NCBI GenBank assembly: GCA_947303715.1
Contig: CAMYYY010000005.1
Location: forward strand, 15,124-79,123
Source: an uncultured Bacteroidales bacterium
Lineage (GTDB): Bacteria; Bacteroidota; Bacteroidia; Bacteroidales; Bacteroidaceae
Direction of reading: 5' to 3'
DNA: 64,000 nt
A program made the position numbers and the translations under genes. How positions within the stretch are numbered: position 1 is the first letter of the stretch; each line of letters starts with the position of its first letter. The notes beneath the pieces were generated by a model. The model saw only the letters and a program-made list of their open reading frames with translations, had not been told where the DNA came from and did not search any database. This document shows, piece by piece, positions 7,750 through 56,953 of this stretch.

Positions 7750-7777
7750 GGGGAAGATTATTCTTAACTCTTAACTT

Positions 7778-14919: not shown

Positions 14920-15009
14920 CAGCCGAAATGCACCAGCCATGCATCTTTTTGGTCACACCGGCGGTGTCAGTATCCGGAATGACGATAGAAACGAATAAAA
15001 AATAAAACA

Positions 15010-20124: not shown

Positions 20125-20395
20125 CTCGGCTCACCCTATCTTTAACCCCCTTCGGGGCTTTTAGATAGGCTGCGGCTCGGATAATAGCAAATATATTTGC
20201 ATTATCGCTCGGCTCACCCTATCTTTAACCCCCTTCGGGGCTTTTAGATAGGCTGCGGCTCGGATAATAGCAAATATATTTGCATTATCGCTCGCCTTGC
20301 ACTATCTTTAACCCCCTTCGGGGCTTTTAGATAGGCTGCGGCTCGGATAATTACAAATATTTTTGCATTATCGCTCGCCTTGCACTATCTTTGCA
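20125..20395 (+). repeat. Three tandem 83-bp promoter-cassette units plus a terminal promoter arm
   Basis: Unit starts (CTCGGC/CTCGCC) fall at 20125, 20208, 20291 and 20374. A degenerate copy lies at 20050-20124. Only the last arm carries a consensus -7 TATCTTTG (20386-20393) with -33 TTTG at 20362-20365. The internal arms read TATCTTTA. Confidence 0.9.
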
Positions 20396-21407: not shown

Positions 21408-21491
21408 TTCGCCTATTCTACGAATTTATTCGCCTGCGCTGTGAATTTATTCGCCTGCTCTGTGAATTTATTCGCCTGCTCTGTGAGAATA
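21406..21491 (+). repeat. Four TTATTCGCCTGCKCTGTG motifs at exact 21-bp phasing
   Basis: TTCGCCT starts fall at 21408, 21429, 21450 and 21471. The array lies between convergent genes and overlaps the 3' end of ORF 21468-22013. Confidence 0.9.
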
Positions 21492-23178: not shown

Positions 23179-23281
23179 CTCGGCTCACCCCATCTTTAAC
23201 CCCCTTCGGGGCTTTTAGATAGGCTGCGGCTCGGAAACACTCAAATAAATTTGGTGTTTCTCTCGCCTTGCACTATCTTTG
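23179..23281 (+). repeat. Promoter-cassette repeat (CCAAATAAATTTGG-type variant) ending in a promoter
   Basis: CTCGGCTCACCCCATCTTTAACCCCCTTCGGGGCTTTTAGATAGGCTGCGGCTCGGAAACACTCAAATAAATTTGGTGTTTCTCTCGCCTTGCACTATCTTTG. The -33 is at 23250-23253 and the -7 at 23274-23281. Confidence 0.85.
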
Positions 23282-23304
23282 TGCGGCGAAATACAGAAGA
23301 AACG

Positions 23305-28125: not shown

Positions 28126-29358
28126 ATGAAGCGATTTGTTTCAATAGCTTTGGCGTGGTTGCTGACGCTGGCAGCATGGGCGCAGACGGATAGCGTGGCT
28201 GTGGCGCAGGATAGCCTGATTGTCGCGCCGGATAGTGCGGTTGTGGCGTTGCCGGATACGGTTGTAGCGTATGTCCCTCGTGTGAGCCTGCTGACGTGCA
28301 GCCCTGCCGCTGAGGTATGGCAGCAGTATGGGCATACCGCCATCCGCTACGAGGATACCGAGCAGGACATCGACGTGGTGTTCAACTACGGGCTGTTTGA
28401 TTTCGATACTCCCCATTTCATCTGGCGTTTCTGCCTGGGGCAGACGGACTACATCGTGGGCGCCGAGATGTACGATTCTTTTAAAAAGGAATATATGGAG
28501 CGTGGCTCGTCGATTACCGAGCAGGAACTGGCCCTCACGCCGCAAGAGGCAGACCGCCTTTGGAATCTTCTTGCCCTGAACTGCCGCCCTGAAAACCGTA
28601 CCTACCGCTATAATTTCTTTTACAACAATTGCAGCACAAAAGCCCGCGACATCATCTATCAGTCGTTGGGTCAGCCTGTCAGCGTGGCTCGCACGGATTC
28701 CGTCAGCCTGCGTACCGTCCTCCATACTTACAATTCGGCCTATCCCTGGGCCTCGTTCGGCATCGACTTGCTGCTGGGTACCGAAGCCGACCGTCCCGTT
28801 CCTCACGATTTGCAGGAGTTCGCCCCGCTCAATCTTGAAGAGAGTTTTGCAAGGGCAACAAGGAGTGGGGGAGAACTGTTCGTGTCGTCTACCACCGTCA
28901 TTCAGCCTACAACGTCCAATGTCTCCCAAAGAGGCTTCCCCCTCACCCCTGTGCAGCTGATGATAGTAGTGCTGCTGATTACGGCTATAATATGCACGCT
29001 TGAGCTGCTGACGGGGCATCGCAATTGGTGGTACGACATCGTGCTCTACGGCACGCAGGGCGTGGCGGGGCTCATCGTTGCCTTCCTGTTCCTTTTCTCC
29101 ACCCATCCCGCAGTAAACTCGAACGTGCTGGTTATTGTGCTGAATCCGCTAGTGCTGGTGTTGCTACCCTTCCTGCTGCGCCAGTCGCGCCGTCGCACAA
29201 TGCCCTGGGCGGCCTGGGCGGAAGTGGGGCTCATCGCCCTCTTGGTTGTGGTATGGCTCTTCGTGCGTCAGGACATTCCCGTTGCGGCATGGGTGTTCTT
29301 CGGCTCGCTTCTCCTCCGTTCCGTACACCATATCATTCGTGCTTCGCACAAAAAGTGA
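28126..29358 (+). CDS. DUF4105 (Lnb N-terminal periplasmic domain) membrane protein
   Basis: 410 aa with VSLLTCSPAAEVWQQYGHTAIRYED...VVFNYGLFDF and C-terminal TM helices. Confidence 0.8.
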   Translation: MKRFVSIALAWLLTLAAWAQTDSVAVAQDSLIVAPDSAVVALPDTVVAYVPRVSLLTCSPAAEVWQQYGHTAIRYEDTEQDIDVVFNYGLFDFDTPHFIWRFCLGQTDYIVGAEMYDSFKKEYMERGSSITEQELALTPQEADRLWNLLALNCRPENRTYRYNFFYNNCSTKARDIIYQSLGQPVSVARTDSVSLRTVLHTYNSAYPWASFGIDLLLGTEADRPVPHDLQEFAPLNLEESFARATRSGGELFVSSTTVIQPTTSNVSQRGFPLTPVQLMIVVLLITAIICTLELLTGHRNWWYDIVLYGTQGVAGLIVAFLFLFSTHPAVNSNVLVIVLNPLVLVLLPFLLRQSRRRTMPWAAWAEVGLIALLVVVWLFVRQDIPVAAWVFFGSLLLRSVHHIIRASHKK

Positions 29359-30992: not shown

Positions 30993-31008
30993 ATTACCTG
31001 AGTTTTTA

Positions 31009-31092
31009 ACGCAGGGGAATGGCGGCTCAGCGCAGGGGAATAAAAAATTAGCGCAGGGGAATGAGGAATTAGCGCAGGGGAATAAAGTGGGT
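31009..31092 (-). repeat. Four TTATTCCCCTGCGCT motifs at exact 21-bp phasing (minus orientation)
   Basis: GCAGGGGAA starts fall at 31011, 31032, 31053 and 31074. The array lies between convergent genes. Confidence 0.9.
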
Positions 31093-35152: not shown

Positions 35153-35190
35153 ATTGAAGATTGAAAATTGAAGATTAAAGATTGAAAACA
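35153..35190. repeat. (GATTGAA)n heptamer spacer (inverse of the TTCAATC family)
   Basis: AATTGAAGATTGAAAATTGAAGATTAAAGATTGAAAAC lies directly after the secA stop. Confidence 0.9.
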
Positions 35191-42565: not shown

Positions 42566-42666
42566 AATGAAAAATGAAGAATGAAAAATGAAGAATAAAT
42601 AGCTTTGCAATCGGAATGTTGCACGCAGGACATTCTATTTTTCATTCTTCATTCTTCATTTTTCAT
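42566..42666. repeat. Palindromic (AATGAAR)n element, copy 3, inside the RND operon
   Basis: The arms AATGAAAAATGAAGAATGAAAAATGAAGAATAAATAG and CTATTTTTCATTCTTCATTCTTCATTTTTCAT give a roughly 30-bp imperfect stem. The loop carries its own GAATGT/ACATTC hairpin. Confidence 0.85.
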
Positions 42667-46185: not shown

Positions 46186-46247
46186 CGCCCCCGCCAGCAG
46201 CGGGCATTCATCCCCTCCGCTCTCCTTCGCGGACACACGGACAGAAA

Positions 46248-46309
46248 CAGGGTAACACCGCATGTGTTGGTGTTACCCTGTTACCGTGATACCGTGTTAC
46301 CGTGACACC
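46248..46309 (-). repeat. (GGTAWCAC)n array 1 with 12-bp-stem hairpin
   Basis: CAGGGTAACACC-gcatgtgtt-GGTGTTACCCTG is followed by GTGTTACC CTGTTACC GTGATACC GTGTTACC GTGACACC (46270-46309). Confidence 0.85.
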
Positions 46310-46315
46310 GCGCGT

Positions 46316-46747
46316 TTACTGCACGGGATAGAGGCTGCTCTTGACGTTCTGGAACTTGGCGTTGGCGATGGCGCGCTTCAGCTTCGGGCTCTGACGCCAG
46401 CGGATGCCCACGCCCTTAATGTACGTGCCCGGATCGAACGCGTCCGTGGGGATGACGGACTGGGCGAAACACTTGCTCTTGACGTTCGCCTCGATGATGC
46501 CCAGGTCGGTGACGCCGTCCTTGAGGTCGCACATCTGCCCCGCCAGAAGATGCTCGCGCAGATGCATACCCATGGCGCTGACGACGGCCACGATGTCGGC
46601 ACGCGTGCACGTGGTGTCACGCTCGATGGCCTGCACAATCTGGACGGGCGTCAGCGACTGCTCGCTGTAGGCGCGGTTGCAGGCATAGTCCACACCCTCG
46701 GCACCCTTCGGGTTACTGCACCCGACAACTTTATACTTGATAGACAT
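46316..46747 (-). CDS. Bacteroidales HU-like DNA-binding protein (paralog 1)
   Basis: 143 aa. MSIKYKVVGCSNPKGAEGVDYACNRA...TRADIVAVVSAM... aligns with the two neighbours. Confidence 0.75.
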   Translation of the reverse strand: MSIKYKVVGCSNPKGAEGVDYACNRAYSEQSLTPVQIVQAIERDTTCTRADIVAVVSAMGMHLREHLLAGQMCDLKDGVTDLGIIEANVKSKCFAQSVIPTDAFDPGTYIKGVGIRWRQSPKLKRAIANAKFQNVKSSLYPVQ

Positions 46748-46753
46748 AGGGGA

Positions 46754-46787
46754 AATTAGGAATTAGGAATTAGGAATTAGGAATTGG
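46754..46787. repeat. (AATTAGG)n heptamer spacer
   Basis: Lies directly upstream of the HU paralog 1 start. A second array at 47317-47352 sits upstream of paralog 2, and an inverted short copy at 36308-36321. Confidence 0.9.
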
Positions 46788-46875
46788 CAGCCTCCCCCTT
46801 ACCCCTCCTGAAGGAGGGGGGACTGATTACTACCGCTCGGGTCCCCTTCCCTTTAGGGGAGGGCTGGGGTGAGGC
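46788..46875 (+). repeat. GC-rich double-hairpin element, copy 1
   Basis: CAGCCTCCCCCTTACCCCTCCTGAAGGAGGGGGGACTGATTACTACCGCTCGGGTCCCCTTCCCTTTAGGGGAGGGCTGGGGTGAGGC. Confidence 0.85.
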
Positions 46876-46896
46876 TTCGGGGAGAGAGGCTATTCG

Positions 46897-47313
46897 TCAG
46901 GACATCAGCTCCGAGGGGTCGCGGCGCAGGGTGGCGTAGCGGCGGATGTACTTCTTCAGGTCGGCACTGGGCTGGAAGGCCACGCGGTAGCCCTTGATGT
47001 AGCTCTGCGGACGGAAGCCGTCCGTGGGGATGGCCGACTGGGCGAAGCACTTGCTCTTGAGCGAGGGACGGAACGAGCCGAAGTTCTGCATCGTCACCGT
47101 ACGGCCCTGCAGGATGCCCTGCTCAATCTCGTAGATGTAGGCGCTGATGACGGCCACCACGTCCGCTTCGGTGACGGTGGTGGAATGGCTGACGTCGGCA
47201 GCCAGCTCTTTCAGGCTGTACGTGCCCGACTTGGTGGCGCGGTTGCAGGCGTACTCGACACCCTCCGCACCCTTCGGGTTCGTGCACCCGACAACTTTGT
47301 AATGGATAGGCAT
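46897..47313 (-). CDS. Bacteroidales HU-like DNA-binding protein (paralog 2)
   Basis: 138 aa. MPIHYKVVGCTNPKGAEGVEYACNRA...TEADVVAVISAY... Confidence 0.75.
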   Translation of the reverse strand: MPIHYKVVGCTNPKGAEGVEYACNRATKSGTYSLKELAADVSHSTTVTEADVVAVISAYIYEIEQGILQGRTVTMQNFGSFRPSLKSKCFAQSAIPTDGFRPQSYIKGYRVAFQPSADLKKYIRRYATLRRDPSELMS

Positions 47314-47355
47314 AATGGAAATTAGGAATTAGGAATTTGGAATTAGGAATTATGA

Positions 47356-47443
47356 GCCTCACCCCAGCCCTCCCCTAAAGGGAAGGGAGCGCGAGCGGAA
47401 GTAATTAGTCCCCCCTCCTTCAGGAGGGGACGGGGGAGGCTTG
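47356..47443 (-). repeat. GC-rich double-hairpin element, copy 2 (inverted relative to copy 1)
   Basis: Its reverse complement matches 46788-46875 with roughly 10 mismatches. It overlaps the last codons of HU paralog 3. Confidence 0.85.
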
Positions 47444-47839
47444 GTCGGCGAGTTCGACGGTGGCGTTGTCGGCCATCCAGCGGCGGATGCCGATGAAGGG
47501 GATGAAGCGCAGGCGGAAGCCCTTGATGATGGTCTGCACGCGGAAGCCGGGCTGCTGCACCGTCTCGGCAGGCGTCAGCCGCGAGTCGACGTTGATGAAG
47601 AAGCGCCCCAGGCCGCGGTACTCCACCGAGCAGCCCTCGAGCAGACGGCGCTTGGTGTGCTCGATGAGGGCCTCCATGGCCGCCGCCACGTCGGCACGCG
47701 TCAGCGAACAGCTGTGGGCGATGTCGTCAGCCATCATGTCGAACGTGTAGAGCCCCGCCGACATGTGCTGCGCGGTCACCCCCGCGCCCCCGGCCTTGCG
47801 GGGATTGGTGTTGTGGTTGAGAATGCATTTCAGTGACAT
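47420..47839 (-). CDS. Bacteroidales HU-like DNA-binding protein (paralog 3, most divergent)
   Basis: 139 aa. ...NTNPRKAGGAGVTAQH...LTRADVAAAMEAL... has the same layout as paralogs 1 and 2. Confidence 0.65.
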   Translation of the reverse strand: MSLKCILNHNTNPRKAGGAGVTAQHMSAGLYTFDMMADDIAHSCSLTRADVAAAMEALIEHTKRRLLEGCSVEYRGLGRFFINVDSRLTPAETVQQPGFRVQTIIKGFRLRFIPFIGIRRWMADNATVELADQASPVPS

Positions 47840-48138
47840 GGCTTTGTTGGGTGTGTCAAGAAGTTGTTTTTTTTTATGAACAGAGAAGAGGATATATGGC
47901 GGTGGCGGGAAAGAAGAGAAATTTTGGAACGTACTTCAGGAAAATCCAAAGCTGCATCTGAACGTTCCTGAGCGCGGCGGCGAAGTGGGAGGCGGCACGC
48001 GCGGCCCGCGCCGCATTACGTCATGCCCTCCATATATATAGTATCCCGAAAAAATCGAAAAATTACGATTTTACCCCATTTTTTTCAACTTTTTTCAAAA
48101 TAGCACTCACAGCGCCTTCTCGCCGGGGGGGGCGTCGC

Positions 48139-48333
48139 GGTATCAGGTATCACGGTATCACGGTATCACACAGACACCCTCACTTTCGCCGCCCCTGTTT
48201 CTATAGGTGGTTTATATTATATATTTATATCAAAGAAAAAAGAGAAATACAAAGAGAACAAAGAAAGTAAAAAAGGGTGAAACGGGTATCATAGGTGTCT
48301 GCGTGATACCGTGATACCTGATACCGTGATACC
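48139..48333. repeat. 40-bp inverted repeats built from (GGTATCAC)n, flanking a 115-bp AT-rich spacer
   Basis: The left arm (48139-48178) is GGTATCAGGTATCACGGTATCACGGTATCACACAGACACC. The reverse complement of the right arm (48294-48333) is GGTATCACGGTATCAGGTATCACGGTATCACGCAGACACC. Confidence 0.85.
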
Positions 48334-48698
48334 CCCCACACCCCGTCATCCCTGCCGTCAGCCTGTCGGCTGTCCATCCTGTTATAGACATCGTTGAGAT
48401 CGACCACATAAATCTGCAAGCAGAGGTCACGTATCTGGCATGAAATAACTCAAATATCAGCATATTTATGAACTTTTATTGTTGATGTTCAAATTTATTG
48501 TGTAACTTTGTGTGCAAAATATGACAAATTGAATAATACCGTCAATTTTGCAAAAGGAAAATAGTTAATGTACACATCAACCGCATCAAAACGATTTTCG
48601 GCAGAGAAAGAGGCAAGTCTATTGAATGGCTATAAGAAAAGATTGACCGCAATACTAGAAATAATTGCAGTATGATAATCCATAAAAAGTAGTAGGAG

Positions 48699-50042
48699 AT
48701 GACAAAATACAGCGCAAATAATATAATTAACAAGAATTCGAAAGCTTATCATGACATCGTCAGTTTTCAAAAGACACTCGGAGATATTATAGATGAGAAC
48801 AGATGTGATGAAAGTCAATATCCTATCATCCTATTTCCTAATAGTTTAGTGGATTACATTGATGAATTTCGTGACCTTGATCCTGACAAATATCTTTCTG
48901 TTGGAAATATTATGAACTTCATTATTAAAAATGGCGAAGATACAGAAACGATACAGAACGATTGGCAAAAGTATAAGAACGAGCCAATAGTACCTACATT
49001 ATACGTCCCAAGGCCCAGAACTCCCCAAAAGAAAGTTGCGCATAAACATGAGGTGCTCACCAAACAAAAGGAAGAAATTAAAGTATTCCGTCCTGGAGGT
49101 TGTTTGATCTTGTCAAGTTTGTTATTTCTCATTTTGTTAGTTATGACTATCGCAAACAAAGATGCGGGCTATATTCTATATTTCCTTTTGTGGATTCCGG
49201 CAATACTTTTAGGTGTAGCACAGGAGGGATTGGGTGAAAAAATCAAAAAAACAGTATTTCGAAAACGAAGCAAAGAGGACATTAAACGTGATGAAGAAAA
49301 AGCGGAATTCGATTATCAGCAGCAAATGGATATATTCGAAGAAGATTACCAAAAACAATTAGAATACAACAAAAAACTGCCCACTTTGATAAAGCAATAT
49401 GAGGAGGAATATGAGATAGAGAAAGAAAAATTTCAAAAAAAGATAGAAGAACGAGAGGATTATTGGAATAAACTACCAATATTAATTGACAAGGAATTCT
49501 GCCGTGCATTTTCTTGCATGATATTGGAAAAAATATCTACGCAGGTTGAGTATAAACGCATAGACCAAGAAAACATGCCTCAAAAAGGTGCAACAGAGGA
49601 TACACTTTTTTATGCCCTCATGAAATATGGAGTGACAGACATTAAAACAGATGTGTTTGTCAATGATTATTACCCAGATATAGCAATCATTGGATGTGGC
49701 TATATGATTGATATAGAAATAGATGAACCTTACACCCATAAAACAAAGAGACTTACTCATTACATAGGATGCGGAGATGAGGAACGTAATGCCAAATTCC
49801 AAGAGACGGGAGCATTTGTTATCCGTTTCTCTGAAGAACAAATAACTAATAATTTGGGTACATGTGTAGAAATTGTATCCAAAATCCAGGGTTTTGCAAA
49901 GACTGGTAATTGTATTTATTTGAATGAAGTTCAAAAGTTGTACTATTCAATAGCTCAAGATCGTTGGACTAAAGAAGATGCACGATGTTATATGATAGAA
50001 GACAGTAGAGAAAAACAAAAAAGAAAAGAAAATGGGAACTGA
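48699..50042 (+). CDS. Membrane-anchored protein with C-terminal DUF559/Vsr-like PD-(D/E)xK endonuclease domain
   Basis: 447 aa. It has two TM helices (GGCLILSSLLFLILLVMTIA, GYILYFLLWIPAILLGVA) and an E/K-rich coiled coil. The C-terminus is TEDTLFYALMKYG...YYPDIAII...IDIEIDEPYTH...ERNAKFQETGAFVIRFSEEQI. It lies in the AT-rich island. Confidence 0.5.
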   Translation: MTKYSANNIINKNSKAYHDIVSFQKTLGDIIDENRCDESQYPIILFPNSLVDYIDEFRDLDPDKYLSVGNIMNFIIKNGEDTETIQNDWQKYKNEPIVPTLYVPRPRTPQKKVAHKHEVLTKQKEEIKVFRPGGCLILSSLLFLILLVMTIANKDAGYILYFLLWIPAILLGVAQEGLGEKIKKTVFRKRSKEDIKRDEEKAEFDYQQQMDIFEEDYQKQLEYNKKLPTLIKQYEEEYEIEKEKFQKKIEEREDYWNKLPILIDKEFCRAFSCMILEKISTQVEYKRIDQENMPQKGATEDTLFYALMKYGVTDIKTDVFVNDYYPDIAIIGCGYMIDIEIDEPYTHKTKRLTHYIGCGDEERNAKFQETGAFVIRFSEEQITNNLGTCVEIVSKIQGFAKTGNCIYLNEVQKLYYSIAQDRWTKEDARCYMIEDSREKQKRKENGN

Positions 50043-50889
50043 CACGTTATATATAATTGGTAACGGATTTGATCGCCATCATGAAATCAAATCAAGTTAT
50101 TTGGATTTCAAAGAATGGTTAAACATCAACAATCATCCATTATTTGAAAAAGCAGATTTGGCATTTAGAAACAATACCGAATTCTGGAGTGATATGGAAA
50201 CACAGCTTGGGCATTTGGACACAGAGCAGTTTCATAAAGATAATTTCAAAGAAATAAGTTTACCTGCAAATAAGGATTTCTACTTTAGCGACTTTCAAAA
50301 TCATTCATCGGAGAAGGCATTAAGAATAATGGTTGAAGAGTTCATTGAGAATCTTAAGCTGTGGGTTCTTTCCTTTGATTATTCCTATGTGAAAGCTGAT
50401 GTCAGTCTCAATAAAAATGCATTCTTCATTACGTTCAACTATACTGATACATTGGAAACGTGTTATGGAGTGCCCAATAATCAAATCCTTTATATACATG
50501 GGAGAGCAAACTCTAATGATAAGCTTATTTTAGGTAGCGGTGTAAGTTCTGGAGACATACTTGAAAATGTTTTTTGTGGTGAATATACAGGTGATGAAGA
50601 TTTTGACAATCTGATTATGGAAGCGGGAAAACTAAAGAAACCTGTTTATCCGATTATACATAAGAATTCTCAGGTTTTCAAGAAACATAATGAACTTGAA
50701 AAAATAACCGTTATTGGATTTTCGTTTTCAGAAATAGATATCCCGTATTTGGAACGTCTAAATTCTCTAAATCCACAGGTTGCAAAATGGAATTTGTGTT
50801 TTCACACATTTGGGGATTTGCGTAGAATTGTCAAGTTCATAAAAACGAGTGGAATATCATGCGACAGAGTGCAGTTGAATTGTTTTTAA
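50032..50889 (+). CDS. AbiH-family abortive-infection protein
   Basis: 285 aa. The N-terminus TLYIIGNGFDRHHEIKSSYLDFKEWL is the AbiH signature. The start overlaps the upstream gene by 11 nt. Confidence 0.7.
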   Translation: MGTDTLYIIGNGFDRHHEIKSSYLDFKEWLNINNHPLFEKADLAFRNNTEFWSDMETQLGHLDTEQFHKDNFKEISLPANKDFYFSDFQNHSSEKALRIMVEEFIENLKLWVLSFDYSYVKADVSLNKNAFFITFNYTDTLETCYGVPNNQILYIHGRANSNDKLILGSGVSSGDILENVFCGEYTGDEDFDNLIMEAGKLKKPVYPIIHKNSQVFKKHNELEKITVIGFSFSEIDIPYLERLNSLNPQVAKWNLCFHTFGDLRRIVKFIKTSGISCDRVQLNCF

Positions 50890-51026
50890 AGTGAGAGCAT
50901 ATGACGAACGAGATATTCATCATAGAAGTAGACTCCGATGGGGTAATCGCAAATCACAAGGACATGCACTTCGATAGATTTCAGGCAATCGACAGGGTGT
51001 AAAACGTTATAAATTAAAAGAATACT

Positions 51027-52568
51027 ATGGCACTAGCAATAAACATAGAAGACCTGCTGAACAAGCAGAAAATTGAATCCAACAGGATAGAATTCAAGAA
51101 AGGTTGGAATCCGGCAAGCATATATCATAGTGTATGTGCTTTCGCAAATGATTTCGAAGATCTTGGCGGTGGATACATACTCGTGGGCGTAGATTGTGAT
51201 AATACAGGTAGGGCAATCCGTCCTGTAGAAGGAGTTCCCGTTGAGAAGATTGACGGTATCCTTCAGGAGATGGTGGGCTATAACAATAAGTTGTCTCCAT
51301 ACTACATGCCCAGGACTAGCGTTGAGGACGTGGATGGTCGGGAGGTGCTGGTGATATGGTGTCCTGCGGGCATCAATAGACCTTACTCTGTGACTGAAAA
51401 TGTAACGGCAAAGAGCGGCAGTAAGGATTACTTCTACGTCCGTAGTGGGACGAGTAGCATTATCGCTAAGGGTGATGTGCTTGACGAATTACGTGAGTTA
51501 GCCAGTCGTGTTCCCTTCGATGAGCGTGGAAATCCGGATATTACGGTGGAGGACATCTCCACGATTCTTTTGCGCGAATACTTGGTGAAGGTGGGTAGCA
51601 AACTGGCCAATGAACTATATCAGCGACCCTTGAATGAAATCTTGGAGCAGATGGACTTGTTTGTGGGCCCAACGGAAAACAGAATGCTGAGAAATGTGGC
51701 GGCGATGATGTTCTGCGAGGATCCATGCAAGTTTTTCAAACGGACACAGGTTGAGATAGTTTTTTTTCCTGAAGGGAGACTTAAGAACCCTAACAGCCTA
51801 TACGAGGGACCGGTGATAACTGGCTCTGTGACGCAGATTATCAATCGCACACTTGAATACCTGAACCGTATGTTGGTGATGCAGACGGTCGTCAAGCCCA
51901 AAGATGATAACCGTAGTCAGAAGTTCTTTACATACCCCTATCAGGCATTGGAAGAAAGTGTCACGAATTCGCTTTATCACAGAGATTATCGCGAATGGGA
52001 ACCTGTAGTGATTACAGTTGAGCCACAGGGAATTACCATCCAGAATGTGGGCGGTCCTGACCGAAGTATATCAAAAGCAGACATAGAGCGGGGTGAACTA
52101 TTCATTTCGAAACGCTACCGTAACCGCAGACTAGGCGAATACTTGAAGGAACTGGATTTGACGGAAGGTAGAAGCACTGGAATCCCAACCATTCAGAACG
52201 AGTTAAAGGAAAACGGCTCTCCACGTGCTATAGTAGTAACTGATGAAGACCGCACTTTTTTCCGCATCACTATCCCATGTCATGAATTAGCCGGCAACAT
52301 CATCGCAGACATTGCAAGCAAGGACAATTCACAAAAGGGTTCACAAAAAGATTCACAAAAGAGTTCACAAAAGAATCAGAATTCACAAATGATTATGGAT
52401 ATGATTCGACTGAACCCGAATGTGACTACTTCTGATATGGCAGAAAAGATTGGCATTTCACGCCGCACTATTGCAAAGATTACAAACAAGCTTCAAACTG
52501 AAGGTGTAATACGTCGCGTCGGAGCTCGAAAAGACGGTCATTGGGAAGTTATTGACAGAGAAAATTAA
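51027..52568 (+). CDS. Schlafen/AlbA_2-type (divergent AAA) + HATPase_c_4-like + C-terminal winged-HTH protein
   Basis: 513 aa. The N-terminus is LLNKQKIESNRIEFKKGWNP...CAFANDFEDLGGGYILVGV, and the mid region has SVTNSLYHRDY. An SQKGSQKDSQKSSQKNQNSQ linker precedes the HTH MAEKIGISRRTIAKITNKLQTEGVIRRVG. Confidence 0.75.
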   Translation: MALAINIEDLLNKQKIESNRIEFKKGWNPASIYHSVCAFANDFEDLGGGYILVGVDCDNTGRAIRPVEGVPVEKIDGILQEMVGYNNKLSPYYMPRTSVEDVDGREVLVIWCPAGINRPYSVTENVTAKSGSKDYFYVRSGTSSIIAKGDVLDELRELASRVPFDERGNPDITVEDISTILLREYLVKVGSKLANELYQRPLNEILEQMDLFVGPTENRMLRNVAAMMFCEDPCKFFKRTQVEIVFFPEGRLKNPNSLYEGPVITGSVTQIINRTLEYLNRMLVMQTVVKPKDDNRSQKFFTYPYQALEESVTNSLYHRDYREWEPVVITVEPQGITIQNVGGPDRSISKADIERGELFISKRYRNRRLGEYLKELDLTEGRSTGIPTIQNELKENGSPRAIVVTDEDRTFFRITIPCHELAGNIIADIASKDNSQKGSQKDSQKSSQKNQNSQMIMDMIRLNPNVTTSDMAEKIGISRRTIAKITNKLQTEGVIRRVGARKDGHWEVIDREN

Positions 52569-52581
52569 GAACAAAGGAAGC

Positions 52582-52700
52582 ATGGATGTGTTATTAGGAA
52601 ACAAAAACTAAGAAATACGTGACGAACAGGATATACGTCAACGACAATTGGCGGATATGCTGGATATAGATGTACCTATGTTCAACAGACAATCATGGGT
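52582..52700 (+). pseudogene. Decayed XRE-family HTH gene (in-frame stop, truncated after helix 3)
   Basis: It reads MDVLLGNKN*EIRDEQDIRQRQLADMLDIDVPMFNRQSW, with TAA at 52609-52611. HTH_3-like similarity ends where the composition switches back to GC-rich at about 52700. Confidence 0.5.
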
Positions 52701-52776
52701 CGGGGTATGCCTCATGCCCCCCTCCGCTCAGGCCGGAAAATTGTGGAAAAAGTGTGGATAACTTTTGCAGGAATCG

Positions 52777-52808
52777 TTTGGAGGTGTGAGGGGAATGTTG
52801 TATCTTTG
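52777..52808 (+). promoter_or_regulatory. Promoter (-33 TTTG, 20 nt, -7 TATCTTTG)
   Basis: TTTG at 52777-52780 and TATCTTTG at 52801-52808, 23 nt before ATG 52832. Confidence 0.6.
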
Positions 52809-52831
52809 TCGTATCTAACTGAGATGGCAAT

Positions 52832-53248
52832 ATGGCACAGGATAACACTCTCGAAGGGGCAGCGATGACGATGGAAACGCTTCAGCTGATTGACGACTAT
52901 GAGACGCTCAAAGGCAAGTACGACGAACTGAAGAGAAAGTACGCGGCGTCGCGAAGCGAAAACGACGTGCTGCGCGAACAGATGGCGGCGCTGCACGAGC
53001 AGCAGGCCTACATGCTGCGCAACCCCCGGCCGTCGGCCGAGATGGAGCAGCAGATGGAGGCCCTCGCCGAACGCTGCGAAAAGGCAGAACGGCTGCTGGC
53101 GCTGCGCAACAGGGAACTGAGCGAGCTGCGGGCGGAACTGCAGCAGCGCACGGAGGCGCAGCAGACGGTGAACATCCACTCCGGAGGGCTGTACGTCAAC
53201 ACCCTCGACAAGCAGTTCAACGGCTTCAAGCCGGAACTGGTAAGCTAA
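52832..53248 (+). CDS. Coiled-coil hypothetical protein
   Basis: 138 aa with heptad-rich E/L/R/Q sequence and a promoter upstream. Preferred over the antisense ORF 52712-53257. Confidence 0.5.
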   Translation: MAQDNTLEGAAMTMETLQLIDDYETLKGKYDELKRKYAASRSENDVLREQMAALHEQQAYMLRNPRPSAEMEQQMEALAERCEKAERLLALRNRELSELRAELQQRTEAQQTVNIHSGGLYVNTLDKQFNGFKPELVS

Positions 53249-53277
53249 CACAAACACACAAAATCTGACACAACACT

Positions 53278-53817
53278 ATGGGCGACAGGATTTTCAACAT
53301 GGAAAAGGGTGCCATCTACATCGAGCACCTCGAGAACCAGGTCAACTACTTCACGACGGACAAGGTGCAGGTGGTCAACGCCTCGCCCTTGCCTCCCCCG
53401 GCCGAAACGGTCACACCTTCTCCCACTCCCACACCGCCGCTGACGCCGGAGGAGCGGACGCGGCAGAGCGTGCGCGACGCGCTCGGCACGATGGCGCGTA
53501 AGCTGCAGACGGAGGAGTTGAAGGACCTGCCCCGTACGGCCTTGTGGCAGGGCGTCTACCGCGTGCTGGAGGACCGCGGCATCGTCAAGGCCGAGGACTA
53601 TGCAGGGTTCGGACGGTACATCAACGCGCTGGAGGTGGAGGGGATGACGCTGGCCGACAACGGCAAGAGCATCAGCAAGACCGACGGCGGCATACTGAGG
53701 AAACCGCTGGCAGAGTGGAACCCGACGAGTTTCGACGGCCGGAAGAGCACGTACGACCGGTTTCACCTGGCCGCCACCACCTTCGACGAAATCCTCACAG
53801 CGTGTATGAAAAACTGA
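53278..53817 (+). CDS. Hypothetical protein with Pro/Thr-rich linker
   Basis: 179 aa with PLPPPAETVTPSPTPTPPLTPEE between two small domains. No family recognised. Confidence 0.45.
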   Translation: MGDRIFNMEKGAIYIEHLENQVNYFTTDKVQVVNASPLPPPAETVTPSPTPTPPLTPEERTRQSVRDALGTMARKLQTEELKDLPRTALWQGVYRVLEDRGIVKAEDYAGFGRYINALEVEGMTLADNGKSISKTDGGILRKPLAEWNPTSFDGRKSTYDRFHLAATTFDEILTACMKN

Positions 53818-53831
53818 GTAGACACGTAAAA

Positions 53832-53876
53832 GCGGTATCAGGTATCACGGTATCACGCGTAACACGCTGATACCGC
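53832..53876 (+). repeat. (GGTAWCAC)n array 4
   Basis: GCGGTATCAGGTATCACGGTATCACGCGTAACACGCTGATACCGC. The first 26 nt are identical to 48137-48162, and the ends form a 9-bp hairpin (GCGGTATCA/TGATACCGC). Confidence 0.85.
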
Positions 53877-53998
53877 AACGCACCACCCTCTCCCTCGTTC
53901 CCCCTCTTTGGGTGACGGGGGGGAGGTCTTTTTTTTCACACCCTCGGCTGAGGACGCCCCCCTCCTCACGGCCAAACTTGCGCTGGAACTAGGGCGAC

Positions 53999-54820
53999 AT
54001 GTACCGCAACGCCTGGGACAACGCTTCGTACTCGCAGGACTACATGAGCGACTCCACCTTCAGCGGACGCGTGAACCTCTTCCTCAACATCCTCGCCACG
54101 GGTACACCTGAGCAGGTGATGAAATTCTACGACAATCCCGAGAACGGACTGATTTCGCGCATCAGCATCTGCCCGATTGCCAATCAGGAATACGCCAGCA
54201 TACCCGTGTGGAGCGAGCTGACCGACGACGAACAGCGGGAGTTCAACAACGTGATGGACTATGCCGACGCCCTGACCTACACGACCGACGACGAAGGGGT
54301 GGAGAGCATCAAGCCACGCACGGACATCACCGACGGGATGCTCTTCATCCACCATCCGCTGGAGGCGTGGCTCGAAGAGAAACGCCTGCTGGCGCTGCGT
54401 ACCCAGGACCAGGCACTCGACCACTTCCGCAAACGCGAGGCCGTGAAGATGTTCCGTATGGCCATGGTATGTTACGGCTGTTTCAGCGGCAATCTGACCG
54501 ATGCAAACCGTCAGGACATCACCGACTTCTGCCTGTGGTGGGGCGAGCAGGACCTGAAGAACCTCACCGACCTATACGGAGAAATGGTTAAGGACACCAT
54601 GCAACGGAGCTACTCGAAAAAAGATGACATCTTTGCACGGCTGTCCGACACCTTCACGGCTGCCGACGTGGAAAAAGCCCGCACAGAGGCTCACATAGCC
54701 ACACCCACAAAGGTGATTGTCTATCGATGGAAAAAGGCGGGACTGATTGCGAAGGACGAGGAAAACAACCTGTACCGCAAACTCGCCGACAGTAACACGG
54801 TAACACCGGTAACACGGTAA
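53999..54820 (+). pseudogene. 5'-truncated DUF3987 (primase-associated helicase-like) gene, C-terminal half only
   Basis: 273 aa. LNILATGTPEQVMKFYDNPENGLISRISICPI and the C-terminal ...IFARLSDTFTAADVEKA...VIVYRWKKAGLI resemble the distal half of Bacteroidales DUF3987 proteins. No Walker-A region is present, and a TAG closes the frame at 53990. Confidence 0.5.
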
Positions 54821-54832
54821 CAAGGTAACAAG
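54791..54832 (+). repeat. (GGTAACAC)n array 5
   Basis: AGTAACAC GGTAACACC GGTAACAC GGTAACAA GGTAACAAG. It encodes the last residues (NTVTPVTR) and the stop of the truncated gene. Confidence 0.85.
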
Positions 54833-54840
54833 AAAGAGTG

Positions 54841-54875
54841 GCGGACATGCACATCGTGTCCGCCCTTTCCTTTAT
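54841..54875 (+). terminator. Hairpin terminator candidate
   Basis: GCGGACA-tgcacatcg-TGTCCGC followed by CCTTTCCTTTAT. Confidence 0.45.
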
Positions 54876-54879
54876 ATAA

Positions 54880-55085
54880 ATGCTCAAATAAATTGGACAT
54901 TTCTCTCGCCTTGACCTTCGGTCTAAAATGCTCACGCTCGGCAAAAGAAAAATTTATTTTCTTTTTGCCCTCGCTTAATTGCATTTTTGCACTATCTTTA
55001 ATCCCCCTTCGGGGGCTTTTAGATAGGGGTCGCCTCGGATAATTGCAAATAAATTTGCATTATCGCTCGGCTCACCCTATCTTTG
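54880..55085 (+). repeat. Promoter-cassette repeats (about two units, first degenerate) ending in a promoter
   Basis: ...TGCACTATCTTTAATCCCCCTTCGGGGGCTTTTAGATAGGGGTCGCCTCGGATAATTGCAAATAAATTTGCATTATCGCTCGGCTCACCCTATCTTTG. The -33 is at 55054-55057 and the -7 at 55078-55085. Confidence 0.85.
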
Positions 55086-55089
55086 TGGC

Positions 55090-55941
55090 ATGATGAAGAA
55101 CACGTGGCATAATCTGGCTTCTACCCTCGGCAGGAAATATCCGCTGCCTGCGGAGGGACGTGTGGCGAGGGACTGCCTGCTGTACTTCGCCCTCGTATTC
55201 CTGATCCTGCTCCTGCTCCAGCCCTTCGGCATTAGCGTCTATAAGGGGAGCAAGTTTATGGTGGCGTTGCTCTTCGGGGCGATGACGTTCGTGTGCAGCT
55301 TTGTCGTCAAGCGGTTCATCGTCGCCCCCTTGCAGAAGCGTGTGCCGACATGGCGCATCTGGCATCAGCTGACGGCGGTCGTCGCGATGGTGCTGATTAT
55401 CGGGCTCGGCAATTATTTCCTCTATACCGTCCTGTTCCACACTCCGATAGACGTGGGGGGCTGTCTGGCGGTACTGTCGTGGACGTTTATAATCGGCGTG
55501 ATCATCACCATCCTCTCTACCATGACGTCCTACCAGCGCCACATGCATGGGCAGCTGCACGACCTGCTCGACAAGACGACTCACGAGCAGGAGGGCACGA
55601 CCGTCGTCCTCCACGACAACCGCGTCAGGGGGAACGACCTCGGCCTTCTCCTGAACGACTTGCTGTACGTCGAGGCGCAGAAGAACAACGTGGCCGTGTT
55701 CTACGTCGAGGGAGGACGTTTGGAGAGGAGGGAGATACAGAGCACGCTCTCGGCCGTGTTGGACGAGCTGAGCGACTACCCCAACATCTTCCAATGCCAT
55801 CGCTCCTTCGTGGTGAACCTGAACAGCATCACCTCGGCGAAAGGGAACTCCAACGGCTACACGCTGGAGCTGGGGGGGGGGCTTGCGACGGTACAGGTGT
55901 CGCGTTCGTTTGTGTCCAAACTGAAGTCTTTTATCTCCTGA
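55090..55941 (+). CDS. Membrane-anchored LytTR-domain DNA-binding protein
   Basis: 283 aa with 4 TM helices followed by LLYVEAQKNNVAVFYVEGG...IFQCHRSFVVNLNSI. The ATG lies 4 nt after the -7 box. Confidence 0.8.
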   Translation: MMKNTWHNLASTLGRKYPLPAEGRVARDCLLYFALVFLILLLLQPFGISVYKGSKFMVALLFGAMTFVCSFVVKRFIVAPLQKRVPTWRIWHQLTAVVAMVLIIGLGNYFLYTVLFHTPIDVGGCLAVLSWTFIIGVIITILSTMTSYQRHMHGQLHDLLDKTTHEQEGTTVVLHDNRVRGNDLGLLLNDLLYVEAQKNNVAVFYVEGGRLERREIQSTLSAVLDELSDYPNIFQCHRSFVVNLNSITSAKGNSNGYTLELGGGLATVQVSRSFVSKLKSFIS

Positions 55942-56073
55942 GGAGGAGGGGGCGGTTAGTTTTTCGTCCGCCGACGTTAGCCATCCGTCCCTGGCGTTTG
56001 GAGGGACGGTTTTCAGGCGTTATCTTTGTGGGCGAAATCAAAATCATTTACTAACCACTAATAAAAAAATGTC

Positions 56074-56652
56074 ATGAAACGTATTTTCATTACCCTTCTG
56101 GTGGCGCTATCGACAGTCGGCCTGTCGAACGCCCAGACAACACAAAAAGTCAGCTATGGCGATCTCAAAGGTAGTTATAACCCTAAGGAGTATGTCCGTC
56201 AGGCGACCGACCCGTACAACGTGGGCTGGTACGGGGTATCGTCGTTCTTCCTTCCCGGCATAGGGCAGCTGCTGTCGGGCGAGACGTGGCGCGGACTGGC
56301 GTTCATGGGCGGAGAGGCGGTATTGCTCTCCATCGTGAAAAGCGCAGCCGACAACCTAGAGAGCCTTGCCATCACCAACGAAAAGGGGATTCTCACCGGT
56401 TTTACCGACGAGGCGGCAGGAAGGAAGAACATGATTGTCCTGCTCAGCGCCCTCGGAGCGGACCTGGGGCTTTCCATCTGGTCGTGCATCGATGCAAAGA
56501 GGGTGGTCAAGGTGAAGAACATGTATTACCAGGAGCTTCTGGGCCGCAAGGGCTCGGTGGAGATGAGCTTCACCCCGACGTTTTCCGCCTCGCCCACTCC
56601 GTCAGGTCCTCTTTCGCCCACAGCCGGCGTAGCGATAGGACTGCGGTTCTGA
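56074..56652 (+). CDS. Hypothetical exported/membrane protein
   Basis: 192 aa with signal peptide MKRIFITLLVALSTVGLSNA and a hydrophobic segment FLPGIGQLLSGETWRGLAFMGGEAVLL. Confidence 0.5.
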   Translation: MKRIFITLLVALSTVGLSNAQTTQKVSYGDLKGSYNPKEYVRQATDPYNVGWYGVSSFFLPGIGQLLSGETWRGLAFMGGEAVLLSIVKSAADNLESLAITNEKGILTGFTDEAAGRKNMIVLLSALGADLGLSIWSCIDAKRVVKVKNMYYQELLGRKGSVEMSFTPTFSASPTPSGPLSPTAGVAIGLRF

Positions 56653-56669
56653 CCCGCCGGTAGCCTTCC

Positions 56670-56755
56670 CCGGCCCCTCCGAAAGGAGGGGTGACTTTCA
56701 GTCCTTCCCTTCAGAGGAGGATTGTGAAGAGGCTAGGTATCTGCCTTAGCCTCTC
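56670..56755. repeat. GC-rich multi-hairpin element related to 46788-46875
   Basis: CCCCTCC-gaaa-GGAGGGG, TCCTTCCCTTCAGAGGAGGA and AGAGGCTAGG...CCTTAGCCTCT. The first hairpin may act as a terminator. Confidence 0.6.
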
Positions 56756-56818
56756 CGTTTTCGTTGCGTTCCGCTACCGTGGTGACGCGGGCCTGCTGGA
56801 ACAGCAGGGCGGCGTAGG

Positions 56819-56923
56819 GCTCGGCTCACCCTATCTTTAATCCCCCTTCGGGGCTTTTAGATAGGGGTCGCCTCGGAAAAATCCAAATAAATTTGGTTTT
56901 TCGCTCGGCTCACCCTATCTTTG
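56819..56923 (+). repeat. Promoter-cassette repeat ending in a promoter
   Basis: GCTCGGCTCACCCTATCTTTAATCCCCCTTCGGGGCTTTTAGATAGGGGTCGCCTCGGAAAAATCCAAATAAATTTGGTTTTTCGCTCGGCTCACCCTATCTTTG. The -33 is at 56892-56895 and the -7 at 56916-56923. Confidence 0.85.
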
Positions 56924-56953
56924 CAACATGGAAAACTTTAACACCCAAATGTC

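Follow-up and report, generated by a model that had tools for sequence, protein, structure and literature searches.

Tandem GGTAWCAC arrays in a Bacteroidales defence-gene hotspot: candidate hairpin repeats at transcription-unit ends

The window (the whole 64,000-nt stretch of DNA from an uncultured Bacteroidales bacterium that was analysed) contains a rumen Bacteroidales defence-gene hotspot (Table 1). Three tandem HU-HIG genes, kept in all strains, are followed by a conserved non-coding module, by defence cargo and by the remains of a primase-helicase gene. The gene context described in the initial annotation was borne out with two corrections. What had been called an AT-rich island plus two hypothetical genes is located where it was placed, but its content is a 447-aa unknown protein, an AbiH protein and a Schlafen/AlbA_2-wHTH protein; in other strains the cargo site holds a 229-aa 23S_rRNA_IVP-like protein or a type IIG restriction-modification (R-M) system. 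The gene described as a truncated DUF3987 is indeed truncated, and its identity can be refined to residues 499–773 (98.9% identity) of a 773-aa BT4734-like_N + DUF3987 protein, the C-terminus of which is predicted by a structure model to be a winged helix. A 2.8-kb deletion (junction 53990/53991) removed the N-terminal 498 aa of this protein and two upstream genes, one encoding 108 aa and the other a sigma-70-r2-like protein of 259 aa.

Table 1. Arrays, genes and non-coding features of the hotspot (positions in the window)
Feature	Position	Strand	Description
Array 1	46270–46309 (feature 46247..46309)	−	5 units: GGTGTCAC GGTAACAC GGTATCAC GGTAACAG GGTAACAC, read 46309→46270
HU-HIG (PF18291) tandem trio	46316..47839	−	HU#1 46316–46747, HU#2 46897–47313, HU#3 47420–47839
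Conserved non-coding module	47882–48337	−	upstream of HU#3
Array 2 (arm B)	48139–48169	+	4 units: GGTATCA + GGTATCAC ×3
AT-rich spacer	48170–48302	−	133 bp between inverted arms (arrays 2 and 3)
Array 3 (arm A)	48303–48333 (feature 48285..48333)	−	4 units, 48333→48303
Strain-specific defence cargo	48699..52568	+	low GC, 35–45%
AbiH	50032–50889	+	in defence cargo
Schlafen/AlbA_2 + wHTH protein	51027–52568	+	in defence cargo
Array 4	53834–53865 (feature 53833..53936)	+	4 units
Primase-helicase remnant	53999..54820	+	C-terminal 275 aa of BT4734-like_N + DUF3987 protein
Array 5	54791–54831 (feature 54791..54873)	+	5 units

Five GGTAWCAC arrays had been reported at these places and nowhere else in the window. 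Pairs of adjacent units, searched for with at most one mismatch allowed, occurred 11 times in 64 kb, always inside one of the five arrays, and TRF returned the identical set of five period-8 arrays. The octamer search had no match in 100 dinucleotide-preserving shuffles (the chance expectation is none); the five runs, all of the size (GGTAWCAC)4–5, are real and non-random. They are found within 8.6 kb, while the other 55 kb of the window has none, and metagenome depth is the same on the arrays as on their flanks, as for low-copy sequence. As originally described, arrays 1 and 3 run opposite to arrays 2, 4 and 5; the earlier start of array 1 at 46248 is explained by an inverted unit at 46250–46259. 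The logo of 151 units, collected from several genera, reads G-G-T-A-W-C-A followed by a variable eighth base (C in 70%), with six of the eight positions invariant; units are spaced by 8 bp (78%), 7 bp (13%) or 9 bp (9%). The AT-rich heptamer arrays of the window, located 7–13 nt upstream of start codons, are a separate class.

Arrays 1, 4 and 5 are in sense orientation: each either occupies the interval from a stop codon to an intrinsic terminator or contributes the 5′ arm of the terminator. Array 1 begins 6 nt past the HU#1 stop codon; its last unit and the inverted unit mentioned above form a 14-bp hairpin that precedes a U-rich tail (RNA folding energy −50.5 kcal/mol, z = −5.2). Array 4 begins 16 nt past the stop of a 179-aa ORF and is enclosed by a CGGTATCAG/CTGATACCG stem (53833–53875), with a canonical intrinsic terminator (13-bp stem at 53887–53926, then U8) ∼20 nt further on; its position is kept in L013, L014, L016 and L018. 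Array 5 overlaps the stop codon of the primase-helicase remnant (54818–54820), encodes its last residues (..SNTVTPVTR*) and is followed after 9 nt by an intrinsic terminator (10-bp stem at 54840–54864, then CTTTCCTTT). Metatranscriptome contigs, which are unstranded and may include DNA carry-over, cross arrays 4 and 5 and stop at the terminators (53707–53937 over array 4, and a read-length contig, 54713–54861, over array 5). In RNA folding, neither array 5 nor arm B formed a convincing hairpin by itself (z = −0.7 for the latter).

Arrays 2 and 3 are the arms of the module upstream of HU#3, which consists, in order, of arm A, the spacer, arm B, a GCGAGAAGG block, a 37-nt block GTAATTTTTCGATTTTTTCGGGATACTATATATATGG (48030–48066), a GC-rich stretch and a hairpin. 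Arm A has an inverted unit at 48285–48291 able to pair with its last unit and followed by a U-rich tract on the minus strand, and arm B is adjoined by a G-run and a conserved block, GCGAGAAGGCGCTGTG in the minus-strand reading (48108–48123). The spacer has 36% GC overall and 27% in a 96-bp core, and its minus strand carries a near-pure pyrimidine tract; the blocks TTTACTTTCTTTkTTCTCTT, TCTCTTTTTTCTTT and ATATATAATA are kept across species. The MAG RUI054 carries one copy of the module that is 89–90% identical (L001) and a second that is ∼74% identical (L011/L036), both without an adjoining HU or primase gene. Across species, arm B is among the best-conserved blocks of the module, and 23 pairs between arms A and B are kept, with A-U↔U-A double changes at W in three units.

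The same design recurs elsewhere. Other strains have a sixth array behind an HTH_34 gene, built like those of the window from units, a hairpin and a U-rich tract. In L001, arm A is in sense orientation ∼100 nt past the stop of an AMP-binding gene; in L011 a unit-built hairpin of 14–16 bp lies ∼50 nt past a racemase gene; and in L012 an array is located between two canonical terminators. The orientation is not always sense, which counts against placing the arrays at 3′ ends: three extra arrays behind the racemase gene of L011 and the array of L007 are antisense to the nearest gene. Also against it, octamer arrays located between core genes in an Alistipes MAG do not follow genes but fold into long hairpins within a divergent promoter region.

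We compared about 12 assemblies of the same species. The array positions are constant, with arrays 1, 4 and 5 in synteny throughout the strains. At these fixed positions the unit number varies from 3 to 8 (4–6 in array 1, 4–8 in arm A and 4–7 in the HTH_34 array). The outer edge of array 3 (48333–48337) is a recurrent boundary, at which cross-strain homology ends exactly and three different defence cargos begin.

Our preferred explanation, to which we assign a probability of roughly 45%, is that the arrays are a slippage-prone, terminator-associated family of hairpin repeats marking the ends of transcription units. The family would consist of rare, lineage-restricted, hairpin-prone simple-sequence repeats with the unit GGTAWCA plus one variable base, placed on the sense strand at 3′ ends between the stop codon and the intrinsic terminator; alternatively, the last unit would pair with a single inverted unit immediately downstream and so provide the 5′ arm of a terminator-like hairpin. 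Units would be gained and lost through replication slippage. In each transcription unit the array would be the conserved element furthest out, and with defence cargo being swapped next to it, homology would therefore stop at the edge of an array. Two such ends facing each other across the conserved AT-rich intergenic module would give the inverted repeat of arrays 2 and 3. Two observations point another way: the low copy number and clustering, unlike those of generic terminators or REP elements, hint at a locus-specific role, and the 7-nt core common to Alistipes, RUI054 and RGIG6315 suggests recognition by a factor and not hairpin formation only.

Among known repeats, the REP/BIME palindromes of Enterobacteria and Pseudomonas are extragenic elements of one 20–40-nt palindrome each. 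The arrays share with them the short length, extragenic location, relatively high GC content, hairpins, both orientations and inverted pairs, as well as the location behind stop codons near or as terminators, the conservation across related genera and the frequent presence at edges of variable DNA; they differ in being a variable number of tandem 8-bp units at a handful of loci. Intergenic direct repeats of short units are also represented by the TAACTGA heptamer arrays of Beggiatoaceae, Cyanobacteria and some Bacteroidetes (PMC4679880) and by prokaryotic ‘satellites’ (PMC6749651), which similarly have 2–10 tandem copies of a 7–8-nt unit, one unit occurring at many sites in a restricted lineage. 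However, the TAACTGA arrays are located a few nucleotides upstream of start codons, like the AT-rich heptamers of the window, while the GGTAWCAC arrays are GC-balanced and follow stop codons, next to terminators and with inverted units as pairing partners.

The initial annotation had interpreted the arrays as recombination sites rather than ordinary terminators. Its description of arrays in the gaps between gene modules holds; its mechanism, that of attC/shufflon-like cassette boundaries, appears very improbable, and so does the variant in which arrays 2 and 3 bound an invertible promoter (inverton) switching expression of HU#3 or the cargo. Gene-content differences between strains were expected to be delimited by arrays, and this is so at the outer edge of array 3, but the opposite boundary of the variable region is off the arrays (52718/52719 in the window, inside a 179/363-aa gene in L014). 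In a relative (L072), two direct (TTGATTAT)n arrays do stand on either side of a type I R-M system, and arrays 2 and 3, as inverted repeats of 31 bp, enclose a 133-bp spacer whose AT-rich motifs resemble promoters, dimensions within the size range of Bacteroidales invertons. Nevertheless, the spacer has one orientation in all assemblies and across species, with no inverted copy among more than 12 assemblies or contig sets, no deletion or inversion joint with arrays at both ends was present in the assemblies or the DNA and RNA contigs, and contigs of the region from DNA and RNA runs showed no strand-switch or skip joint at arrays. Both real indels of the window, the 2.8-kb deletion and a 2-kb insertion (54883–56870, with 83-bp repeats on its flanks), break away from arrays. 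In line with the initial annotation, none of 40 ORFs scanned in the window is a recombinase. With attC, shufflon sfx sites and Bacteroidales invertons the arrays share the location at module boundaries, the mixed orientation and one boundary at strain-variable cargo, but they are made of tandem units, whereas those sites are imperfect palindromes with conserved cores, and they have no attC-like core or structure. Products of inversion or excision were not found, and instead of one site per gene, several cargo genes lie between two arrays: three of them share one flank with no array in between. Octamer arrays also occur between core genes (the Alistipes MAG) or beside them (the RUI054 MAG), and the arrays are physically tied to terminators.

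We also regard it as unlikely that the arrays act at the DNA level, as repeated sites to which a dimeric protein binds (iterons, operators or centromere-like sites). A binding-site array would fit the conserved 7-nt core with its tolerated eighth base, the occurrence in both orientations, the low copy number and the tight clustering. The omega repressor/centromere protein of inc18 plasmids binds WATCACW heptad arrays. By analogy, the arrays might be comparable in their contiguous 7–8-bp units, direct and inverted, at several places per locus, and in the ATCAC within the T-type unit; but no ribbon-helix-helix gene was identified here, and the arrays are mostly behind genes, not over promoters. 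In the strongest form of this proposal, arrays 2 and 3 would be two iteron sets flanking a melting region in a PICI/SaPI/P4-type origin serving the BT4734-like primase-helicase of the island, with arrays 1, 4 and 5 auxiliary, like crr in phage P4. The two inverted 4-unit sets around the spacer match the published layout of PICI origins, in which iteron sets flank an AT-rich region (PMC6092414). Moreover, the intact island encodes a protein with primase and helicase domains, the predicted winged helix of which would be the kind of domain that P4 alpha uses for binding origin repeats (PMC4234260); variable accessory/defence cargo adjoins; and at a homologue locus (L073) inverted 9-mer sets surround an AT-rich 105 bp, 9 nt past the gene stop. 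The module is, however, 5.5 kb from the primase-helicase gene on its 5′ side, not immediately 3′, and the arrays are intact in the window despite the destroyed helicase gene. The octamer does not co-vary with the protein, being absent at six homologue loci (30–62% identity) and present beside a 29% homologue with a different C-terminus, and both RUI054 copies of the module lack a primase-helicase or HU gene within 3–5 kb. Arrays of period 7–9 occur behind 23% of ordinary genes in these genomes, so their presence behind the primase gene in 4 of 7 cases is no enrichment. The island, fixed in all strains compared, showed no integrase, att site or presence/absence polymorphism in the strain comparison, and primase-helicase homologues are essentially absent from plasmid and phage collections. 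It is likewise improbable that the arrays are neutral, i.e. a functionless, slippage-prone octamer that spread locally by duplication or gene conversion and persists as harmless intergenic DNA. Such an origin would agree with the strain polymorphism in unit number, the abundance of other 7–9-bp arrays in these genomes, the octamer as a plain microsatellite in unrelated organisms (Chitinophaga, E. albertii, Chloroflexaceae, coral and termite metagenomes) and the double changes in arms A and B, explicable by inter-arm gene conversion. It is at odds with array positions kept between species with flanks only ∼74% identical, with the conservation of arm B and of the unit core, and with the regular placement relative to stop codons and terminators.

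As terminator-associated hairpin repeats, the arrays would have arisen by slippage of a terminator arm. They may be transcribed and act within 3′-UTRs as hairpin elements with several pairing registers, functioning in termination, insulation or 3′-end protection.

The octamer arrays are confined to one part of the window. A search for paired adjacent GGTAWCAC units (at most one mismatch) gave 11 matches, all 11 within the five arrays, and none of 100 dinucleotide-preserving shuffles of the window had any paired-unit match. Tandem Repeats Finder reported the same five period-8 arrays, and direct reading agreed; the positions, orientations and absence from the rest of the 64 kb claimed in the initial annotation are all correct. 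The five arrays fall within 8.6 kb, with none across the other 55 kb. Among 151 units from the window and related loci the consensus reads G-G-T-A-W-C-A with a final base that varies (C in 70%), and the unit spacings are 8 bp (78%), 7 bp (13%) and 9 bp (9%). In metagenome contigs the octamer arrays and their flanks have equal depth, thus the family is low-copy; the heptamer arrays, the 83-bp repeat and the 88-bp hairpin described below occur at 100-2500x. No Rfam family was found at gathering score in the whole window, E-value-level matches being generic hairpin (miRNA) noise only, and a literature search for the octamer returned primers only. Two ideas about the unit were dropped: two-G runs separated by 6-nt loops make poor G-quadruplexes, and a DnaA box has one base that the octamer lacks.

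Positions and contents of features in the window and in the compared loci
Feature	Locus	Position	Strand	Content	Basis
Array 1	Window	46270-46309	-	5 units	Read directly
Array 2 (arm B)	Window	48139-48169	+	4 units	Read directly
Array 3 (arm A)	Window	48303-48333	-	4 units	Read directly
Array 4	Window	53834-53865	+	4 units	Read directly
Array 5	Window	54791-54831	+	5 units	Read directly
RND efflux operon	Window	to 46185		Last gene P-II-like	Gene-order scan
HU-HIG genes	Window	46316-47839	-	Three genes	Gene-order scan
Defence genes	Window	48699-52568		447-aa protein, AbiH, Schlafen/AlbA_2-wHTH protein; 35-45% GC	PADLOC matches
Genes after the defence cargo	Window			Two small ORFs (138 aa, 179 aa), then 273-aa ORF	Gene order
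Cargo between array 3 and the 138/179-aa genes	Window			AbiH and Schlafen-like
Same cargo position	L013, L016-L018			229-aa 23S_rRNA_IVP-like protein
Same cargo position	L014, L015, L033			Type IIG restriction-modification system
Hotspot interval	Window	48699-52568
Hotspot interval	L014	3084-9183
Hotspot interval	L071	324-8517
Hotspot interval	L072	4179-10314
CTAGA 9-bp repeats	L013	9200-9330, 5200-5260
CTAGA 9-bp repeats	L071	1021-1081, 5241-5293
83-bp repeat	Window	20125-20392		3.2 tandem copies
83-bp repeat	Window	13050-13154, 23179-23283, 54987-55087, 56820-56925
Heptamer arrays (among others)	Window	4515-4542, 7762-7781, 9094-9129, 14994-15016, 35153-35186, 42637-42666, 46754-46785, 47320-47352
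Period-21/42 repeats	Window	7005-7086, 21407-21486, 28188-28248, 31006-31087

The arrays are found at gene ends. Array 4 lies 16 nt beyond the stop of the 179-aa ORF, inside a CGGTATCAG/CTGATACCG stem, with a canonical terminator (13-bp stem and U8) directly 3′ of it. The primase-helicase gene has its stop codon within array 5, and a terminator with a 10-bp stem lies 9 nt beyond the array; overlap with the last 10 codons makes array 5 a partial exception to extragenic placement. Array 1 is located 6 nt past the HU#1 stop, where its last unit and a single inverted unit form a 14-bp hairpin (z = -5.2) with a U-rich tail, and a sixth array, which some strains have behind an HTH_34 gene beyond the RND operon, has the same design of units, hairpin and U-rich tail. 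These two arrays make the hairpin themselves, with tails that are merely U-rich, and arm B makes none. Metatranscriptome contigs (low depth, unstranded and possibly DNA) extend across arrays 4 and 5 and stop at the terminators. We tentatively read the arrays, at a probability of about 0.45, as a rare, lineage-restricted family of octamer repeats that are prone to slippage, form hairpins and occupy transcription-unit 3′ ends, where an array may serve as the 5′ arm of a terminator-like hairpin or as a transcribed element just ahead of the terminator.

The same HU genes were found in about a dozen contigs of the same species, in which the array positions are constant and the number of units varies: 4-6 in array 1 and 4-8 in array 3, with arrays 4 and 5 fixed at 4 (array 5 of the window reads as 5). 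Changes in unit number recall phase variation with its switching of genes on and off, yet the arrays follow coding regions; in array 5 every frame of the A-type units contains TAA, and a different unit number would therefore alter only the last few residues. Like REP/BIME elements, the arrays are extragenic (array 5 in part), hairpin-forming and situated behind genes in both orientations; unlike them, the octamer family is neither high-copy nor dispersed, as seen from its clustering in the window, its metagenome depth and the 1-2 loci per species representative.

The initial annotation had proposed the arrays as attC-like or shufflon-like recombination sites and as cassette boundaries. In favour of this stands one fact: homology to all strains with other cargo ends at 48333-48337, the outer edge of array 3, which is thus a cargo junction. 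The opposite end of the variable stretch is not at any array, and neither are the indels of the window. A private 2.8-kb deletion relative to the same-species locus L013 has its junction at 53990/53991, lacks microhomology and is 125 bp from array 4. A private 2-kb insertion (54883-56870), which carries a gene for a 192-aa membrane protein and is missing from the other strains, has copies of an 83-bp repeat on both sides; these repeats, not octamer arrays, bound the difference. The 83-bp family, a CCCCTTCGGGG hairpin with a GCAAATATATTTGC palindrome, also occurs in MAG RUI054. An 8.5-kb joint (48337 to 56856) in one sequencing run, considered as a deletion, is really an alternative cargo type bearing a copy of this repeat.

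Several other predictions of site-specific recombination failed as well. Integrons have an integrase gene intI (a tyrosine recombinase) and attI beside the cassette array, and attC sites are imperfect palindromes with R''/L''-L'/R' cores, one per promoterless gene and uniform in orientation; here, by contrast, we find tandem octamers in mixed orientations and three cargo genes with no array between them. The remark that the window encodes no recombinase was borne out by a Pfam scan of 40 window ORFs (including every ORF of at least 100 aa in 39.6-62.5 kb), and the 20-kb loci of other strains likewise yielded none. More than 12 assemblies, and the contigs of DNA and RNA runs (contigs hide minority forms), all have the spacer between arrays 2 and 3 (48170-48302) in one orientation; none has it inverted, and we consider an inverton improbable. 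The contigs of four DNA and five RNA-labelled runs contain no strand-switch or skip joint with arrays at both ends. Recombination sites are, in our judgement, highly improbable. Under the 3′-end reading each transcription unit has an array as its outermost conserved element, which explains both why arrays and module boundaries fall together and why cargo replacement ends at array 3; the replacement itself would most simply be homologous exchange via the conserved flanks.

Arrays 2 and 3 are inverted arms of four units each around a 133-bp spacer (GC 36% overall, 27% in the core) and, with ∼290 bp toward HU#3, make a conserved non-coding module, 47882-48337. MAG RUI054 has two copies, one 89-90% identical (L001) and a second ∼74% identical (L011/L036), neither with an HU or primase-helicase gene within 3-5 kb; in one, arm A is ∼100 nt behind an AMP-binding gene, and the other faces the 3′ end of a convergent gene. 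Near-invariant blocks include GCGAGAAGG, a 37-nt block with CGGGATACTATATATATGG at its end, arm B and a tract of pyrimidines. Some strains have GGTAACAC or GGTGACAC units in place of GGTATCAC, and both arms switch jointly. Twenty-three base pairs between the arms are kept in nine sequences, and in three units the W position has changed on both sides of the pair (A-U to U-A and the reverse); in sequence terms these changes fit pairing, and gene conversion between the arms could produce them equally well. Each arm, on its own sense strand, is directed into the spacer with T-rich sequence next, so that arrays 2 and 3 can be read as two transcription-unit ends face to face.

Beyond arm B, on the minus strand, the stretch 47882-48066 comprises the GCGAGAAGG block, the invariant 37-nt block GTAATTTTTCGATTTTTTCGGGATACTATATATATGG and a GC-rich region with a closing stem and a hairpin before AAAATTTC (counterparts in RUI054: L001 2964-3299 and L011 1984-2320). 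It matches no Rfam family; since a gene follows it in some cases and not in others, it might represent a promoter together with a small RNA. A Logan contig of ERR12024228 (L019) switches inside the shared module: its left 7.3 kb is 97-98% identical to RUI054, and its HU#3 is 100% nucleotide-identical to that of the window species. We rejected it as an alternative genomic context or horizontal transfer; it is probably an assembly chimera, recent transfer being less likely.

The octamer is rare. Three perfect units were found at 12 loci among 185,579 species representatives and at 48 metagenome loci, with only 1-2 loci of at least three perfect units per representative; matches outside Bacteroidales look like unrelated microsatellites. 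Within Bacteroidales, arrays occur in RUI054, an Alistipes MAG, one further Bacteroidales MAG and RGIG6315. In the Alistipes MAG they form long intergenic hairpins between core genes (among them SBF transporter, DUF1573, NusB-like and formiminotransferase genes). In RGIG6315 inverted arrays 7.4 kb apart enclose a segment that encodes a homologue of the primase-helicase (29% identity); the right array has a terminator on either side.

The window comes from an uncultured bovine-gut/rumen Bacteroidales, and the same sequence is found in MAG GCA_002309805.1 and many rumen and digester metagenomes. The ORF of the 447-aa protein (48699-50042) overlaps the AbiH start by 11 nt, and its product has no match in Pfam or PADLOC. 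The DUF3987 gene described initially as truncated is indeed so: the 273-aa ORF corresponds, at 98.9% identity, to the C-terminal 275 residues of a protein that other strains have intact (773 aa). Lost in the 2.8-kb deletion were the genes for a 259-aa sigma-70-region-2-like protein and a 108-aa protein, together with primase-helicase codons 1-498; the 273-aa, ATG-initiated ORF is what is left. In the intact protein (L013) BT4734-like_N, which is a primase-like domain, scores 42.5 bits and DUF3987 37.3 bits, both above the Pfam cut-offs. A structural model of the remnant (pLDDT 75.6) has a C-terminal helix-helix-strand-strand winged-helix topology at residues 211-262, with weak and local PDB matches only, such as the MCM8 WH domain. 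By sequence the primase-helicase has no match in the PDB, and in plasmid and phage collections only distant partial ones. CTAGA-containing 9-bp tandem repeats are seen upstream of the 23S_rRNA_IVP-like genes and within the primase-helicase gene (encoding LENLENLEPLE). The conserved promoter region of the 138-aa gene, at the point (52719) from which the other strains are again homologous, contains a perfect DnaA box TGTGGATAA and a near copy TTGTGGAAA (52737-52766); by chance, 64 kb would have ∼0.5 such boxes.

According to a passage in PMC6092414, PICI/SaPI origins consist of an AT-rich region between two iteron sets, immediately 3′ of the initiator gene. In P4 alpha a winged helix binds the origin repeats, and the pRN1 origin is just downstream of its primase-helicase gene (PMC4234260). 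Arrays 2 and 3, inverted four-unit sets flanking an AT-rich spacer, match the PICI/SaPI layout, and the intact L013 protein has the primase and helicase domains of a PICI/SaPI/P4 initiator, with a predicted winged helix, the window gene being truncated. The paired arrays are, however, ∼5.5 kb from the primase-helicase gene and on the 5′ side of the operon; directly after that gene comes the single array 5 and at once a terminator. Also unlike PICI/SaPI/P4, the island has no integrase, and all same-species contigs have it at the same site, with no presence/absence polymorphism; a search for an empty site via the neighbouring P-II-like gene returned the same arrangement only. The resemblance of arrays 2 and 3 to a PICI/SaPI origin remains, and three defining features set the island apart from that class.

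Co-variation was assessed at six loci of BT4734-like homologues (30-62% identity). GGTAWCAC arrays were found at none of the six and are present beside the 29%-identical homologue of RGIG6315; the octamer therefore does not co-vary with the primase-helicase. Some loci have 8-9-bp arrays of other units right after the homologue gene (ATTGCATT, ATCAATTT, ATTTGTTTC). At these loci arrays follow the primase-helicase gene in 4/7 cases and other genes in 19/81 (23%), which is not an enrichment, and the array of L071 (a locus in another genus) is the leader of the following gene, 7 nt from its start codon. Lineage-specific arrays after the gene were rejected as evidence for iterons on this 23% background, the L071 leader array and the failure of GGTAWCAC to follow the protein tree.

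The window has other repeat families. AT-rich heptamer tandem arrays (TGTTTAA, TCTTAAC, ATTGAAG, AATTAGG and others; 3-7 copies) precede the start codons of unrelated genes by 7-13 nt, instead of following genes as do the octamer arrays of ∼50% GC, and resemble the TAACTGA leader repeats (PMC4679880). A few heptamer units are used repeatedly, and in metagenome contigs, both DNA and RNA, (AATTAGG)n has a depth of 100-2500x and is joined to a wide variety of sequences. An ∼88-bp element behind HU#2 (46787-46876) recurs as its reverse complement (∼90-93% identity) behind HU#3 (47355-47441); it is hairpin-like, with sub-threshold Rfam hairpin matches, and multi-copy in metagenomes with many different flanks. 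Period-21 (or 42) tandem repeats, with differing units in 3-4 copies, are in part intergenic.

Low copy number, clustering and constancy of the core across genera are not well explained by the 3′-end reading, and these properties keep alive two alternatives, that the arrays are DNA-binding sites, the origin variant included, or that they are neutral satellites, each of which we consider unlikely. A further reading, quite improbable in our estimate, takes the arrays as cis sites of a domesticated satellite-like replicative island of rumen Bacteroidales. Arrays 2 and 3 with the AT-rich polypyrimidine spacer would then be an origin or a structured DNA site, the GGTAWCA core would be bound by the intact BT4734-like primase-helicase or by the three fast-evolving HU-HIG proteins, arrays 1, 4 and 5 would act as auxiliary sites or as boundaries, and the system would amplify or insulate the defence hotspot.

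The octamer arrays are akin to known prokaryotic short-unit satellites and REP-like elements, and are new as a variant. If the 3′-end reading holds, they are an example of simple-sequence repeats growing out of terminator stems, and show that repeats can seem to partition islands without acting as recombination sites, a caution for island and cassette prediction. HU-HIG and BT4734-like loci, two large gene families, are common across Bacteroidales and still unexplained. If the arrays are protein-bound iterons or an origin, they would give the first cis-acting handle on both families, and the satellite-island reading would provide the first cis element and a testable function for their loci. 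The more promising leads are the conserved module and the defence hotspot. The hotspot adjoins BT4734-like/HU-HIG genes, with AbiH and a Schlafen-like protein here and type IIG restriction-modification in sister strains, and type I restriction-modification adjoins 57-60% identical primase-helicase homologues in other genera. Whichever reading holds, the locus defines a defence hotspot of uncultured rumen Bacteroidales, with HU-HIG genes on one side and a BT4734-like primase-helicase on the other, and contains a conserved non-coding module common to different species.
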